Shown one piece after another: positions 4,286 through 64,000 of a stretch of 64,000 nucleotides of DNA. A program made the translations under genes and the position numbers. Below the pieces are notes generated by a model. It saw only the letters and a list, made by a program, of their open reading frames with translations. It ran no database searches and had not been told where the DNA came from. Numbering within the stretch: position 1 is the stretch's first letter; each line of letters starts with the position of its first letter. The DNA is from Escherichia coli (GTDB taxonomy: Bacteria > Pseudomonadota > Gammaproteobacteria > Enterobacterales > Enterobacteriaceae), in NCBI RefSeq assembly GCF_009931435.1, contig NZ_CP043414.1; one strand, given 5' to 3'.

Positions 4286-6175
4286 ATGGCTGAATTCGAA
4301 ACCACTTTTGCAGATCTGGGCCTGAAGGCTCCTATCCTTGAAGCCCTTAACGATCTGGGTTACGAAAAACCATCTCCAATTCAGGCAGAGTGTATTCCAC
4401 ATCTGCTGAATGGCCGCGACGTTCTGGGTATGGCCCAGACGGGGAGCGGAAAAACGGCAGCATTCTCTTTACCTCTGCTGCAAAATCTTGATCCTGAGCT
4501 GAAAGCACCACAGATTCTGGTGCTGGCACCGACCCGCGAACTGGCGGTACAGGTTGCTGAGGCAATGACGGATTTCTCTAAACACATGCGCGGCGTAAAC
4601 GTGGTTGCCCTGTACGGCGGCCAGCGTTATGACGTGCAATTACGCGCCCTGCGTCAGGGGCCGCAGATCGTTGTCGGTACTCCAGGCCGTCTGCTGGACC
4701 ACCTGAAACGTGGCACTCTGGACCTCTCTAAACTGAGCGGTCTGGTTCTGGATGAAGCTGACGAAATGCTGCGCATGGGCTTCATCGAAGACGTTGAAAC
4801 CATTATGGCGCAGATCCCGGAAGGTCATCAGACCGCTCTGTTCTCTGCAACTATGCCGGAAGCGATTCGTCGCATTACCCGCCGCTTTATGAAAGAGCCG
4901 CAGGAAGTACGCATTCAGTCCAGCGTGACTACCCGTCCTGACATCAGCCAGAGCTACTGGACTGTGTGGGGGATGCGTAAAAACGAAGCGCTGGTACGTT
5001 TCCTGGAAGCGGAAGATTTTGATGCGGCGATTATCTTCGTTCGTACTAAAAACGCGACTTTGGAAGTGGCAGAAGCTCTTGAGCGTAACGGCTACAACAG
5101 CGCTGCACTGAACGGTGACATGAACCAGGCGCTGCGTGAGCAGACTCTGGAACGCCTGAAAGATGGTCGTCTGGATATCCTGATTGCGACCGACGTTGCG
5201 GCCCGTGGCCTGGACGTTGAGCGTATCAGCCTGGTAGTTAACTACGATATCCCGATGGATTCCGAGTCTTACGTTCACCGTATTGGTCGTACCGGCCGTG
5301 CGGGGCGTGCTGGTCGTGCGCTGCTGTTCGTTGAGAACCGCGAGCGTCGTCTGCTGCGCAACATTGAACGCACTATGAAGCTGACCATTCCGGAAGTAGA
5401 ACTGCCGAACGCAGAACTGCTGGGCAAACGCCGTCTGGAAAAATTCGCCGCTAAAGTACAGCAGCAGCTGGAAAGCAGCGATCTGGATCAATACCGTGCA
5501 CTGCTGAGCAAAATTCAGCCGACGGCGGAAGGTGAAGAGCTGGATCTCGAAACTCTGGCAGCCGCACTGCTGAAAATGGCACAGGGTGAACGTACTCTGA
5601 TTGTTCCGCCAGATGCGCCGATGCGCCCGAAACGTGAATTCCGCGACCGTGACGACCGTGGTCCGCGCGATCGTAACGACCGTGGCCCACGTGGCGACCG
5701 TGAAGATCGTCCGCGTCGTGAACGTCGTGATGTTGGCGATATGCAGCTGTACCGTATTGAAGTGGGCCGCGATGATGGTGTTGAAGTTCGTCATATCGTT
5801 GGCGCGATTGCTAACGAAGGTGACATCAGCAGCCGTTACATCGGTAACATCAAGCTGTTTGCTTCTCACTCCACCATCGAACTGCCGAAAGGTATGCCGG
5901 GTGAAGTGCTGCAACACTTTACGCGTACTCGCATTCTCAACAAGCCGATGAACATGCAGTTGCTGGGCGATGCACAGCCGCATACTGGTGGTGAGCGTCG
6001 TGGTGGTGGTCGTGGTTTCGGTGGCGAACGTCGTGAAGGCGGTCGTAACTTCAGCGGTGAGCGCCGTGAAGGTGGTCGTGGTGATGGTCGTCGTTTTAGC
6101 GGCGAACGTCGTGAAGGCCGCGCACCGCGTCGTGATGACTCTACTGGTCGTCGTCGTTTCGGTGGTGATGCGTAA
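4286..6175 (+). CDS. deaD: cold-shock DEAD-box ATP-dependent RNA helicase DeaD/CsdA (629 aa)
   Basis: ORF 4220..6175; start set at [13 protein letters not shown]; motifs [12 protein letters not shown] (LVLDEADEM), [13 protein letters not shown]; Arg/Gly-rich C-terminal tail. Confidence 0.95.
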
Positions 6176-59103: not shown

Positions 59104-60414
59104 ATGTTTGATTCGACTTTAAATCCGTTATGGCAGCGTTACATCCTCGCCGTTCAGGAGGAAGTAAAACCGGCGCTGGGATGTACTGAACCAATTTCAC
59201 TGGCGCTGGCGGCGGCGGTAGCTGCGGCAGAACTGGAAGGTCCGGTTGAACGAGTAGAAGCCTGGGTTTCGCCAAATCTGATGAAGAACGGTCTGGGCGT
59301 CACCGTTCCTGGCACGGGAATGGTGGGGCTGCCGATTGCGGCGGCGCTGGGAGCGTTAGGTGGAAATGCCAACGCCGGGCTGGAAGTGCTGAAAGACGCA
59401 ACTGCGCAGGCAATTGCCGATGCCAAAGCACTGCTGGCGGCGGGGAAAGTCTCAGTTAAGATCCAGGAACCTTGCGATGAAATCCTCTTCTCACGCGCCA
59501 AAGTCTGGAACGGTGAGAAGTGGGCGTGTGTCACCATCGTCGGTGGGCATACCAACATTGTGCATATTGAGACGCACAATGGCGTGGTGTTTACCCAGCA
59601 GGCCAGTGTAGCAGAGGGCGAGCAAGAGTCGCCACTGACGGTGCTCTCCAGAACGACGCTGGCTGAGATCCTGAAGTTCGTCAATGAAGTGCCGTTTGCG
59701 GCGATCCGCTTTATTCTCGATTCTGCGAAGTTAAATTGTGCGTTATCGCAGGAAGGCTTGAGCGGTAACTGGGGGCTACATATTGGCGCGACGCTGGAAA
59801 AACAGTGTGAACGCGGTTTGCTGGCGAAAGATCTCTCTTCATCCATTGTGATTCGTACCAGCGCGGCATCCGATGCGCGTATGGGCGGCGCTACGCTTCC
59901 GGCAATGAGTAACTCCGGCTCGGGTAACCAGGGGATCACTGCAACAATGCCTGTGGTGGTGGTCGCAGAACACTTCGGGGCCGATGATGAACGGCTGGCG
60001 CGTGCGCTGATGCTTTCGCATTTGAGCGCGATTTACATCCATAACCAGTTACCGCGTTTGTCTGCGTTGTGTGCCGCAACGACAGCAGCAATGGGGGCTG
60101 CTGCTGGGATGGCATGGCTGGTGGATGGGCGTTATGAAACCATCTCGATGGCGATCAGCAGTATGATCGGCGATGTCAGCGGCATGATTTGCGATGGTGC
60201 GTCCAACAGCTGCGCGATGAAGGTTTCGACCAGTGCTTCGGCTGCGTGGAAAGCAGTGTTAATGGCGCTGGATGATACCGCTGTGACCGGTAATGAAGGT
60301 ATTGTGGCGCATGATGTTGAGCAGTCGATTGCCAACCTGTGTGCGCTGGCAAGCCATTCGATGCAGCAAACGGATCGGCAGATTATCGAGATTATGGCGA
60401 GCAAGGCCAGATAA
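59104..60414 (+). CDS. cyuA: L-cysteine desulfidase (UPF0597 / YhaM)
   Basis: 436 aa; Cys-containing motif …[13 protein letters not shown]…. Confidence 0.85.
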
Positions 60415-60429
60415 ACGCCTGGTTATGGG

Positions 60430-60545
<116 letters not shown>

Positions 60546-60546
60546 T

Positions 60547-60711
60547 TTACGCGGTAGCTTCATCCTCGGCTAAACGCGTTTCAGCATCCGCGACAATGGC
60601 TTCCAGTTCGCTCAACATCTCTTCATAGCCAAAATTATTGGCGGTGCGAGCCGGTTCCTTCGCCACCACGGGCTTCACTGGCTGACGCTTTTTGGCCGAT
60701 TTTTTACTCAT
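60547..60711 (-). CDS. yhaL: small basic protein YhaL (~54 aa), not in the supplied ORF track
   Basis: minus-strand ORF reading M(M)SKKSAKKRQPVKPVVAKEPARTANNFGYEEMLSELEAIVADAETRLAEDEATA*; fits the yhaM-yhaL-yhaK order. Confidence 0.6.
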   Translation of the reverse strand: MSKKSAKKRQPVKPVVAKEPARTANNFGYEEMLSELEAIVADAETRLAEDEATA

Positions 60712-61435: not shown

Positions 61436-61539
61436 AATTCTTGACCTCTCTTTACTTCCTTTTATGGTAAGGGGCTGGACGCTACATTGTTAGCCAGATA
61501 TTCTGCCCGGTATGTTCAAATTTCCTGAATGAGAACGAA

Positions 61540-62436
61540 ATGGCCAAAGAAAGGGCATTAACGCTGGAAGCACTACGGGTTATGGATGCGATCGATCGCC
61601 GGGGCAGTTTTGCGGCGGCGGCGGATGAGCTGGGACGCGTGCCTTCCGCACTTAGCTACACCATGCAAAAACTAGAAGAAGAGCTGGATGTGGTGTTGTT
61701 TGACCGCTCGGGCCATCGCACCAAATTCACCAATGTCGGGCGAATGTTGCTGGAGCGAGGGCGCGTTTTGCTGGAAGCCGCAGATAAACTGACTACCGAT
61801 GCGGAAGCCCTCGCGCGCGGTTGGGAAACGCATCTCACCATTGTGACTGAGGCGCTGGTACCGACACCCGCCTTTTTCCCGTTAATCGACAAACTGGCGG
61901 CAAAAGCCAATACCCAACTGGCAATCATCACCGAAGTGCTGGCGGGGGCGTGGGAACGGCTGGAGCAGGGGCGCGCGGATATTGTTATCGCGCCGGATAT
62001 GCATTTTCGCTCCTCGTCGGAGATCAACTCGCGCAAACTCTATACCTTAATGAACGTCTATGTTGCCGCGCCTGATCACCCGATTCATCAGGAGCCGGAA
62101 CCGTTATCTGAAGTGACGCGCGTGAAATATCGTGGAATTGCGGTGGCGGATACCGCTCGTGAGCGCCCGGTGTTGACCGTACAGCTGCTGGACAAACAGC
62201 CGCGCTTAACGGTGAGCACGATTGAAGATAAACGTCAGGCATTACTGGCGGGGCTTGGCGTGGCGACGATGCCGTATCCGATGGTTGAAAAAGATATTGC
62301 GGAAGGACGGTTGCGTGTCGTCAGCCCGGAATCGACCAGCGAGATCGATATTATTATGGCCTGGCGTCGTGACAGTATGGGGGAAGCGAAATCCTGGTGT
62401 CTGCGGGAAATTCCCAAACTTTTTAGCGGAAAATAA
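61540..62436 (+). CDS. yhaJ: LysR-family transcriptional regulator YhaJ
   Basis: 298 aa; N-terminal HTH …FAAAADELGRVPSALSYTMQKLE…. Confidence 0.88.
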   Translation: MAKERALTLEALRVMDAIDRRGSFAAAADELGRVPSALSYTMQKLEEELDVVLFDRSGHRTKFTNVGRMLLERGRVLLEAADKLTTDAEALARGWETHLTIVTEALVPTPAFFPLIDKLAAKANTQLAIITEVLAGAWERLEQGRADIVIAPDMHFRSSSEINSRKLYTLMNVYVAAPDHPIHQEPEPLSEVTRVKYRGIAVADTARERPVLTVQLLDKQPRLTVSTIEDKRQALLAGLGVATMPYPMVEKDIAEGRLRVVSPESTSEIDIIMAWRRDSMGEAKSWCLREIPKLFSGK

Positions 62437-62449
62437 TATTTGTTATTTT

Positions 62450-62480
62450 TAATAAAAAGGGGCGAAATATCGCCCCAATT
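62450..62480. terminator. bidirectional rho-independent terminator between convergent yhaJ and yhaI
   Basis: aaaaaggggcgaaatatcgccccaattc with flanking A/T runs. Confidence 0.75.
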
Positions 62481-62486
62481 CTAAGA

Positions 62487-62843
62487 TTAATTTGAACCAA
62501 ACTTCGGATCGTTTCCGTAACGATTGCTGCCAGAATTGCCTTCTAAACAGGCAAATACAAACAGAACTAACCAGCCAATGACCGGTACCAGATAGAGAAG
62601 CGCCCACGCACCTGAACGGTCAGTATCGTGCAGACGACGAACGCACAGAGCAATGACCGGAATGATTGTTGCTGCCAGGTAAATGAGAGAAAGGAATGGA
62701 AACTCTAAACCTAAAATCAATTGAATGACATTGATAATAGTGCCGACGATGGCGTTAATCAGAGTAAACATCCAGTACTCTTTACGACGTGCACGACCAG
62801 AGAAACCAACATAATTTTTTAATACGGCTAAATACCACTGCAT
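62487..62843 (-). CDS. yhaI: DUF805 inner-membrane protein YhaI
   Basis: 118 aa; MQWYLAVLKNYVGFSGRARRKEYWMF... Confidence 0.85.
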   Translation of the reverse strand: MQWYLAVLKNYVGFSGRARRKEYWMFTLINAIVGTIINVIQLILGLEFPFLSLIYLAATIIPVIALCVRRLHDTDRSGAWALLYLVPVIGWLVLFVFACLEGNSGSNRYGNDPKFGSN

Positions 62844-63045
62844 AAAAACATCCCTTTAATTAAAAGTTGCGAAAGTCTATTCCGGGGATGGAGTAAATGC
62901 TATTCGTATCTTTCTTTTTCGGATGTTATAAAGGTTTTGATATTTAAGATAAATACATGGTCGTGTTTTATATGTAATTTATATAACGACATTGAAATAA
63001 TTTCAATAAACATTAGGAGATTATTTATTCATCAACATGATGATA

Positions 63046-63075
63046 AAAGCCGGATGAGTCAGACATCCGGCGAGG
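63046..63075 (-). terminator. hairpin terminator downstream of yhaH
   Basis: ccggatgagtcagacatccgg inverted repeat; T-rich tract on the minus strand. Confidence 0.55.
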
Positions 63076-63084
63076 AGATTTGTT

Positions 63085-63450
63085 TTAAGGTTCCAGTTTC
63101 GGATCTGGTCCAAAGCGGTTTTCGCCTGGCGTACCTGCCTGGCAGTTAAAGACGATGATAATCAGCCAGCCGATAAACGGAATTAAGAACAGCAGTGCCC
63201 ACCACGCCGAGCGGTCGGTGTCGTGCAGGCGGCGGAACTGAACTGCCCACCATGGTAAAAACACCAGAATACCGTAGATTGTCGTCAGGATGCCTTCGCC
63301 ACCGGCGCGTTGCCAGCCTAACATTTTATCCAGCAGCCCCAGCACGAACGTAAAGATGATGTTGACCAGAATAAACATCCAGTACTCTTTGCGCCGCGCA
63401 CGGCCCCGGAAACCGACATAATTTTTTAGTACTTTCAGATACCAGTCCAT
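63085..63450 (-). CDS. yhaH: DUF805 inner-membrane protein YhaH (121 aa), paralogue of YhaI
   Basis: ORF 63085..63471; start set at MDWYLKVLKNYVGFRGRARRKEYWMF. Confidence 0.85.
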   Translation of the reverse strand: MDWYLKVLKNYVGFRGRARRKEYWMFILVNIIFTFVLGLLDKMLGWQRAGGEGILTTIYGILVFLPWWAVQFRRLHDTDRSAWWALLFLIPFIGWLIIIVFNCQAGTPGENRFGPDPKLEP

Positions 63451-63544
63451 TTTTGCCTCAATTTTGCTCAATCACTTGTTTTTAAAGCAGCAAATTAAGA
63501 ATAGACGTGAATGAAATGGCAGTAAATATTATCTCGATGAATTA

Positions 63545-63700
63545 ATAAGGCGCTGTGAAGGATAAGGGCAAGCGCAAAATTGCCAGATGCGCTACGCTTA
63601 TCTGGCCTGCGCGGTCATTGCAACATATTGAATATAAATGTTTTGTAGGTTTGATAAGGCGTTTACGCCACATCCGACATGAACAACACGCACTTAGCTA
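63545..63700. repeat. REP palindromic elements
   Basis: gcgctacgcttatctggcctgcgcgg... and gtaggtttgataaggcgtttacgccacatccgacat. Confidence 0.8.
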
Positions 63701-63732
63701 ATTATCAGAGGCACCTCGTAAGGCGCCTTTTT

Positions 63733-64000
63733 TTAACCGAAGCGAACATCTCGTCCGTGCGGTTCATCGAGATCCTGCCACGGACCAATTGAAATAATCC
63801 CCGTAGGGTTGATGGTCTTATGGCTGCGGAAGTAGTGATTACGGATGTGAGCGAAATTGACGGTTTCGGCAATTCCCGGCATCTGGTAGATATCGCGCAG
63901 GAAGCCATACAGATTCAGGTAATCGCTGATGCGGTGCTTATCGCACTTGAAGTGGGTGACATACACCGGATCAAAACGGACCAGTGTGGTCCACAGGCGA
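63733..64000 (-). CDS. yqjG: glutathionyl-hydroquinone reductase (Xi-class GST), C-terminal fragment; 5' end outside window
   Basis: minus-strand frame open to the window edge; translation …ISDYLNLYGFLRDIYQMPGIAETVNF…; position after yhaH. Confidence 0.65.
   Translation of the reverse strand, partial: RLWTTLVRFDPVYVTHFKCDKHRISDYLNLYGFLRDIYQMPGIAETVNFAHIRNHYFRSHKTINPTGIISIGPWQDLDEPHGRDVRFG

Follow-up and report, generated by a model that had tools for sequence, protein, structure and literature searches.

The stretch of DNA analysed here (64,000 nucleotides of Escherichia coli, hereafter the window) ends in the E. coli locus yhaL-yhaK / yhaJ / yhaI / yhaH / yqjG, as judged from 99.6% identity to E. 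coli chromosomes and from the RefSeq annotation. Two neighbouring minus-strand genes, yhaI and yhaH, encode proteins of the DUF805 family (Table 1). The pair itself is already known and is annotated across E. coli genomes; both genes are still classed as uncharacterised (PMC11551758), and RefSeq has both of them in its annotation of the locus but gives the YhaI of the window no gene name. The longest open reading frame of yhaH begins with a TTG at 63471; the ATG at 63450 is the annotated start and the one common to homologues. The neighbouring regulator gene yhaJ serves here as a synteny anchor only, and no regulation of the pair by yhaJ is implied.

Table 1. Features of the yhaJ-yhaI-yhaH region, in window coordinates
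Feature	Position	Strand	Description
yhaJ	61540..62436	+	LysR-type regulator (Pfam HTH_1 and LysR_substrate), convergent with yhaI
yhaI cassette	62438..63089	minus	652 bp: last two codons and stop of yhaH, yhaH terminator, spacer, yhaI, yhaI terminator
yhaI terminator	62459..62476	minus	GGGGCGA-tatt-TCGCCCC then TTTTTATT; between convergent yhaI and yhaJ
yhaI	62487-62843	minus	118 aa, DUF805, accessory paralogue, window-type allele; protein MQWYLAVLKNYVGFSGRARRKEYWMF...NRYGNDPKFGSN
Hyperdivergent yhaI block	62535..62708	minus	Codons 46-103, helices 2 and 3; separates two E. coli alleles
AT-rich spacer	62844..63084	minus	241 bp, GC 0.31; presumed regulatory region and yhaI 5' UTR
Shine-Dalgarno-like AGGGA	62851..62855	minus	8-12 nt upstream of the yhaI ATG; read from sequence
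Candidate sigma-70 promoter for yhaI	62978..63006	minus	-35 TTGAAA (63006-63001), 17-nt spacer, -10 TATAAA (62983-62978)
yhaH intrinsic terminator	63049..63071	minus	Directly after the yhaH stop codon; part of the cassette
yhaH	63085-63450	minus	121 aa, DUF805, core gene of the locus; protein MDWYLKVLKNYVGFRGRARRKEYWMF...NRFGPDPKLEP

The YhaH and YhaI proteins

Both proteins exceed the gathering cut-off of Pfam DUF805 (PF05656; 25.7 bits), YhaI with 108.5 bits and YhaH with 120.9 bits. The family comprises 27,953 cluster representatives at E <=1e-3, and many of its members carry two to four units per chain. Eight residues (R17, R20, W24, P62, R69, R70, H72 and D73) do not vary among 69 diverse homologues, and both window proteins have them all, which accordingly display the GRARR..E.W motif near the N-terminus, P62 and the RRLHD loop after helix 2. 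An AlphaFold2 model of YhaI (pLDDT 90, pTM 0.81) predicts an amphipathic helix at residues 2-9 followed by hydrophobic helices at 20-44, 50-73 and 78-85/89-99, the last kinked at P87. This is the small helical membrane protein expected of DUF805, and a YhaH-GFP fusion is found at the membrane (PMC3225971). For a natural two-unit DUF805 protein, the AlphaFold model has good domains and a pTM of only 0.51, so that unit-unit packing, and hence a YhaH-YhaI interaction, is without structural support. A profile search of PDB sequences returned no relative, its sole match having an E-value of 0.077. No defence-system model of PADLOC matches YhaH or YhaI, and NCBIfam has no match for either YhaI allele and only two far-below-cutoff matches for YhaH (22.6 vs 80 and 18.9 vs 33 bits).

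The initial annotation had described yhaI and yhaH as DUF805 paralogues derived from an old tandem duplication. Their paralogy is borne out by the Pfam matches of both. The genes are adjacent and share a strand. The pairwise alignment suggested there as a check gives 63 of 118 identical residues by BLASTP (53%, residues 1-114/118, E 2e-44); with the proteins 53% identical end to end, the similarity extends well beyond the N-terminal motif. YhaH orthologues across the Enterobacteriaceae are 70-90% identical, compared with this 53% between YhaH and YhaI. A neighbour-joining tree has the YhaH genes branching in line with the species and the YhaI of E. coli in a clade separate from YhaH, alongside YhaI-type proteins from Intestinirhabdus, Superficieibacter and Citrobacter and one encoded on a Rep3 plasmid. 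Because the two clades are separate, the duplication behind both subfamilies predates the radiation of the family, and by its sequence YhaI appears to represent an old DUF805 subfamily of its own, distinct from YhaH. Adjacency, shared strand and full-length homology are what in-paralogues would display; YhaI and YhaH are not mutual closest relatives, however, and do not occur as a pair throughout the lineage. The duplication is thus old, as proposed, and the paralogy full-length, with separate clades, but in E. coli it is not a simple duplication fixed vertically at this site.

An accessory cassette between yhaH and yhaJ

We surveyed 5426 complete E. coli genomes with a 1161-bp region as query. 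About 1070 of them matched over <=44% of the query, and identities were unexpectedly low and fell into distinct groups. Aligned representatives resolve three states of the locus, namely a window type, a K-12 type and an empty type. Alignment of the window with K-12 (L004) and with cassette-less genomes (L002, L003) places sharp boundaries at 62438 and 63089. In the empty type, found for example in Nissle 1917, APEC O18 and Ecol_743, the 652 bp between these boundaries are replaced by 40 bp with an unrelated hairpin, AGCACCTTTTACAAGGTGCT (-16.4 kcal/mol), and YhaH ends in LEQE* rather than in the LEP* of cassette-bearing genomes. The intact empty site is present in 1009 of the 5426 genomes; about 81% carry the cassette. 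Rare derivatives have a truncated yhaH pseudogene (L003) or an IS1 insertion.

The segment differs from its flanks in composition: yhaI has a GC content of 0.43-0.45 (0.43 in the window allele) vs 0.52 in yhaH, and a GC3 of 0.41-0.46 (0.41 in the window allele) vs 0.63 in yhaH and 0.60 in yhaJ. Like a genomic islet, then, it varies in presence, its boundaries are sharp, relatives retain an intact empty site, and its base composition is unlike that of the flanking core genes. The third mark of an islet, a mobility signature (integrase or transposase, end repeats, identifiable donor), is missing, and the junctions contain no mobility gene, target-site duplication or divergent flanking tract. A plasmid origin of the cassette was considered and is unsupported: the only matches are mislabelled chromosomes or weak DUF805 matches, and none of them is a genuine copy of the cassette on a plasmid. 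Only yhaH is a fixed core gene, and yhaI with its spacer is an accessory add-on. The initial annotation missed this accessory and dimorphic character of yhaI, which is not a fixed duplicate.

To place the cassette in a wider context, we anchored a tblastn synteny survey of 80 Enterobacteriaceae species representatives on YhaJ (93-100% identical). The yhaK-yhaJ-[DUF805]-yqjG-yqjF locus is conserved, nearly always with a single DUF805 gene that is a YhaH orthologue (70-90% identity). E. albertii, Escherichia sp. E1V33 and two further Escherichia representatives have yhaH only. The hairpin AGCACCTTTTACAAGGTGCT lies at the yhaJ-yhaH junction of empty E. coli, E. albertii and Escherichia spp. alike; in other genera the junction is a 43-65 bp convergent terminator of unrelated sequence. 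At the Escherichia junction a REP insertion sometimes duplicates the hairpin.

YhaI-type genes do occupy the same yhaH-yhaJ slot in C. sedlakii, in some C. amalonaticus strains and in Superficieibacter, where three DUF805 genes stand in a row. E. coli and Citrobacter share the architecture of the cassette, that is, a terminator, an AT-rich spacer (224-241 bp, GC 0.28-0.31), yhaI and a second terminator, the equivalent spacers of C. amalonaticus and C. sedlakii measuring 224-225 bp at GC 0.28-0.29. Hairpins of the form (C)GGGGCAAT...TTGCCCC(G), homologous to the yhaI terminator, follow the yhaI-type genes of C. amalonaticus, C. sedlakii and Intestinirhabdus. In one C. amalonaticus genome (L016) a single gene joins the body of yhaH to the tail of yhaI and the yhaI terminator, a fusion that arose by deletion through recombination between the conserved C-terminal coding stretches of the paralogues. 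Loss thus does occur, and absence of the cassette is not always ancestral.

The use of one slot in several genera also fits an ancient tandem duplication at this locus that descended vertically into E. coli, with the yhaI-less genomes (B2, other Escherichia, most genera) each having lost yhaI. The homologous terminator and AT-rich spacer across those genera, the documented loss in L016 and the grouping of the Citrobacter YhaI copies with one another all speak for such a history. It would nevertheless demand that yhaI was lost independently many times, with a neat convergent-terminator junction of 43-65 bp left behind on each occasion, and all cassette-less Escherichia share one hairpin unrelated to the cassette. 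The Escherichia empty site is not of the L016 fusion kind, and the LEQE* tail of its YhaH is not derived from yhaI. Given in addition that the composition of yhaI and its spacer is unlike that of the neighbours and that a YhaI-type gene is also plasmid-borne, we regard vertical descent with repeated loss as rather unlikely, though it is the alternative with most in its favour. Parsimony favours an Escherichia ancestor with yhaH only and a gain of the cassette in part of E. coli.

Two divergent alleles of yhaI

The K-12 genes yhaH (b3103) and yhaI (b3104) have the same locus, order and orientation as those of the window. YhaH of the window is 100% identical to YhaH of K-12, with 9 synonymous and 0 non-synonymous differences between the genes (dN = 0). 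The two YhaI proteins, in contrast, are only 84% identical and represent different alleles, 17 of their 19 changes falling within residues 46-103. The corresponding block differs from K-12 at 20-30 positions per 100 bp, compared with 0-7 in adjacent windows. Between the alleles, codons 38-108 have dS 1.03, dN 0.165 and omega 0.16, with all differences there inside 46-103; outside the block, dS is 0.09 in yhaI codons 1-37 and about 0.10 in yhaH and yhaJ. For scale, yhaH of E. coli has a dS of 0.42-0.63 to E. albertii and of 1.3-2.1 to Salmonella, with omega at 0.04-0.10. The divergence of the yhaI block within one species exceeds the former and approaches the latter.

Both forms are common. The window-type block is present in 2294 genomes, about 2081 carry the K-12-type block (>=95% identity), and the thousands of complete genomes exclude an assembly or annotation artefact as the source of the two alleles. 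Recombinants between them exist (P0004, P0007). Each E. coli allele has the other as its closest relative, and among 5.8 billion proteins none more than 67% identical was found outside E. coli. Gene conversion from yhaH was examined as a source of the block and rejected: DNA identity between the block and yhaH is 49-55%, and of the 58 sites that differ between the alleles yhaH agrees with either one at only a minority. The divergent block is either a segment imported from a distant, unsampled yhaI lineage or the mark of two old alleles that have been kept.

In these respects yhaI resembles other hyperdivergent mosaic alleles of E. coli, with a tract of dS ~1 in flanks of dS ~0.1, recombinants and two common forms. 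It differs from them in that the variable part lies in inner-membrane helices rather than in a surface-exposed loop, and in that public data hold no donor lineage for the block. The allelic differences lie on one helix face, in helix 2 (resultant 0.73, p 1e-4) and in helix 3 (p 0.03), a pattern that would fit lipid-facing or partner-facing positions.

Could yhaI instead be a decaying, functionless remnant, its divergence and patchiness reflecting relaxed constraint only? The gene is missing in a fifth of strains, several database entries look frameshifted, and substitutions on one helix face would be expected of tolerated lipid-facing changes. The omega of the block is also two to four times that of yhaH (0.05-0.10 between genera), yet a value of 0.16 at dS ~1 still denotes clear purifying selection. 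About 4350 genomes have an intact open reading frame, none of the family-invariant residues has been lost, and yhaI is strongly and specifically inducible (PMC3891560, PMC2731931). Decay of a functionless gene is accordingly improbable in our judgement.

Transcription of yhaI and its biological setting

The initial annotation had noted about 240 bp of AT-rich DNA with a terminator hairpin between the genes and had judged independent transcription probable; both points hold. The spacer measures 241 bp at GC 0.31 (down to 0.24 in 120-bp windows), with the hairpin at 63071-63049. The yhaH terminator reads GCCGGATG-7 nt-CATCCGGC then TTTTAT, an 8-bp stem with 6 GC pairs and a 7-nt loop that folds at -15.0 kcal/mol (z -4.8); the yhaI terminator folds at -16.3 kcal/mol. 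A relaxed scan predicts a promoter-like site within the spacer, TTGAAA-17-TATAAA, with 10/12 consensus matches. Its K-12 counterpart has the weaker -35 element TTTAAA (9/12). A strict sigma-70 scan of 62400-63750 returned no promoter; that scan demands T at -10 position 6 and for this reason misses the candidate. Near the yhaI start, the Citrobacter cassettes share the conserved stretch TTTTAATTAA-GG-AT, and the E. coli and Citrobacter spacers align weakly beyond the last ~30 nt. An Rfam search (E up to 1) gave no match within the spacer or either gene, and no match to the CpxR box GTAAA-N5-GTAAA with <=2 mismatches lies in 62844-63084; a box is present at 62754-62768, within yhaI. Sub-threshold Rfam matches to the REP-derived naRNA4 fall outside the spacer and the genes only.

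Ler is an anti-silencer of the H-NS family. In EHEC it activates yhaI 36-fold; outside the LEE only four genes are activated by it in late-log cells, among them yhaI but not yhaH (PMC3891560). Activation of the Cpx response raises yhaI 3.2-fold on arrays and 40.3-fold by qRT-PCR, compared with 1.9-fold for yhaH (PMC2731931). Despite this published induction, the spacer contains no CpxR box upstream of yhaI of the kind expected in the direct CpxR regulon, and Cpx control may therefore be indirect or act through a degenerate site. In Salmonella, the validated targets of the sRNA SdsR include yhaH mRNA, and YhaH protein accumulates toward stationary phase (PMC5137417).

With terminators after both genes, a promoter-like site in the spacer and discordant published expression, yhaI and yhaH are very probably transcribed separately. 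A single operon read through from the yhaH promoter, with the spacer as an untranslated linker, is very improbable. The genes are adjacent in the same orientation, the spacer lacks a strict-consensus promoter, and a single table row in Bury-Mone et al. groups 'yhaH yhaI yhaJ' as a putative unit (PMC2731931); that row cannot be an operon, however, since yhaJ lies on the opposite strand. An operon would have no terminator between co-regulated genes, and here a strong one stands directly past the yhaH stop codon, the 10/12 promoter-like site follows within the spacer, Cpx activation is 40-fold for yhaI as against 1.9-fold for yhaH (PMC2731931), and the Ler set contains yhaI only (PMC3891560).

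Taken together, a core yhaH accompanied by an accessory, separately transcribed and dimorphic yhaI cassette is the best explanation of the locus, and we consider it probable. Under this explanation yhaH would be the ancestral DUF805 inner-membrane gene of the yhaK-yhaJ-yhaH-yqjG-yqjF locus, held under strong constraint, and the compact, low-GC cassette would occupy the slot between yhaH and yhaJ as a presence/absence polymorphism, B2-type strains and other Escherichia species being without it. Transcription of yhaI would form a unit of its own starting in the spacer. Because the spacer is AT-rich and Ler, an anti-silencer, activates the gene, we infer that H-NS silences the spacer in the uninduced state and that Ler may act there as anti-silencer. 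YhaI could be a condition-specific (stress- or virulence-regulated) inner-membrane partner of, or substitute for, a constitutive YhaH.

Such an arrangement recalls the H-NS-silenced, Ler-antagonised genes of EHEC, both LEE and extra-LEE, which yhaI resembles in its AT-rich upstream region (GC 0.31), low GC content and patchy distribution, and Ler activation of LEE genes is comparable with the 36-fold effect on yhaI (PMC3891560). It differs from LEE-type islands in being a single 652-bp one-gene cassette in the chromosome backbone without mobility genes, and in being present also in non-pathogenic strains such as K-12; H-NS silencing, moreover, is presumed here from the features named above.

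Inner-membrane host factors for the entry of phage genomes include ManYZ (lambda), PtsG (HK97) and NfrB (N4). YhaH is likewise an inner-membrane protein whose loss confers phage resistance: strain TK001 becomes resistant to phages PhiWec188 and PhiWec190 when yhaH is mutated and can be infected again once the gene is complemented (bioRxiv 10.1101/2024.11.29.626071; PMC12695924). This recent link, which concerns YhaH, is the only functional handle on the pair, and YhaH may or may not act at the entry step itself. It is conceivable, although we hold it to be a long shot, that DUF805 proteins are inner-membrane phage entry factors and that phage pressure keeps the three yhaI states (absent, K-12-type and window-type). 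If so, each state would change which phages use a YhaH/YhaI assembly, and the two helix-face variants at dS ~1 would be a long-lived balanced polymorphism.

The pair belongs to the uncharacterised 'y-ome' of E. coli, and confirming its existence adds little. More consequential is the distribution of alleles, since K-12 and O157 share one, B1-type strains (IAI1) and the window strain have another, 84% identical, and B2 (Nissle 1917) has none. As yhaI is not core and differs by strain, results on yhaI are not transferable between strains. Its absence from the B2-type genomes examined (Nissle 1917, APEC O18) could explain why a Ler effect on the gene is on record for EHEC alone, if EPEC E2348/69 also lacks yhaI. 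The spacer is a conserved part of the transferable unit and probably the place where the Ler and Cpx responses act, which recommends it as a compact model for how one gene is silenced and anti-silenced. Finally, now that YhaH has been tied to phage infection, yhaI and its alleles are obvious variables for studies of phage host range.

Variation of DUF805 loci across genomes

A comparison of Citrobacter loci provides a clear case in which recombination between the two paralogues produced a deletion. Other C. amalonaticus strains carry the tandem DUF805 pair, whereas strain ku-bf3 carries a single gene in which the body of yhaH is joined to a yhaI-type tail (PKQNEMR*) and is followed by the yhaI terminator. 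Superficieibacter electus encodes three consecutive DUF805 proteins, and the spacer preceding its YhaI-type copy comprises 464 bp of REP-rich DNA.

In E. coli isolate 30224_1#201, which is of the empty type (the short hairpin segment occupies the place of the yhaI cassette), yhaH is reduced to a fragment and the locus therefore contains no intact DUF805 gene. No DUF805 match was found at the locus of Escherichia sp. MOD1-EC7003, and one E. coli genome (NZ_OZ501570.1) carries an IS1 insertion inside the region. In BL21(DE3) (NZ_CP081489.1), the junction probe matches at the yhaJ end only; the unmatched yhaH end suggests an additional rearrangement or deletion.

Locations of the DUF805 genes and associated features
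Feature	Location	Context
yhaH	window 63085-63450 (-)	DUF805
yhaI	window 62487-62843 (-)	DUF805
Two overlapping CpxR-like boxes, one mismatch each	window 61441-61465	yhaK-yhaJ divergent promoter region
CpxR-like box, one mismatch	window 62754-62768	inside yhaI coding sequence, opposite strand
REP-type palindromic repeats	window 63540-63690	yhaH-yqjG interval; sub-threshold Rfam naRNA4 matches
REP-type palindromic repeats	window 60405-60580	downstream of yhaL; sub-threshold Rfam naRNA4 matches
Chimeric single DUF805 gene	L016:5390-5830	C. amalonaticus ku-bf3; comparison locus L085:2911-3925
Three consecutive DUF805 genes (145, 122, 119 aa)	L088:2119-3860	Superficieibacter electus; between Ldh_2 gene and yhaJ
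yhaH pseudogene fragment, 66 bp	L003:2608-2673	E. coli isolate 30224_1#201, empty type
YhaI-type DUF805 gene	L089-L091, 3501-3860	61% identity to YhaI
Doubled empty-site hairpin	L005, L006, L008, ~5395-5615	E. albertii and two other Escherichia representatives

A plasmid-type relative and candidate regulatory sites

A Rep3 replication gene and a phage-type integrase are also present on L089-L091, the contigs, annotated by NCBI as E. coli, that carry the YhaI-type gene. This gene adjoins a Wzz-like gene and is flanked by two genes encoding CaiF/GrlA-family regulators. GrlA is an activator of ler. These neighbors are notable because chromosomal yhaI is itself activated by Ler (PMC3891560).

Across the entire window, CpxR-like matches with no more than two mismatches number 85, against 55 expected. 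A link is possible between the one-mismatch boxes and the Cpx effect reported for this group of genes.

Membrane topology of YhaH and YhaI

The structure model, made for YhaI, contains three hydrophobic helices, and the conserved P87 is predicted to kink residues 78-99. Both the N-terminus and the RRLHD loop carry strong positive charge, and natural proteins include head-to-tail strings of two to four DUF805 units. A C-terminal GFP fusion of YhaH gave a fluorescent signal in a screen limited to proteins whose C-terminus is cytoplasmic, as predicted or experimentally shown (PMC3225971). Together, the helix count, the charge distribution, the GFP signal and the multi-unit proteins would fit better with residues 78-99 re-entering the membrane than with their spanning it.

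REP repeats and insertion at the convergent junction

REP-type repeats occur in the yhaH-yqjG interval and downstream of yhaL. Over positions 63500-63700, each 100 bp of the window shows 13-16 differences from K-12, yet this stretch is almost the same as in the B2-type genome. In E. albertii, as well as in two additional Escherichia representatives, a REP-containing insertion of ~170 bp lies between the two copies of the doubled hairpin. This arrangement shows that small insertions have repeatedly targeted the convergent junction.
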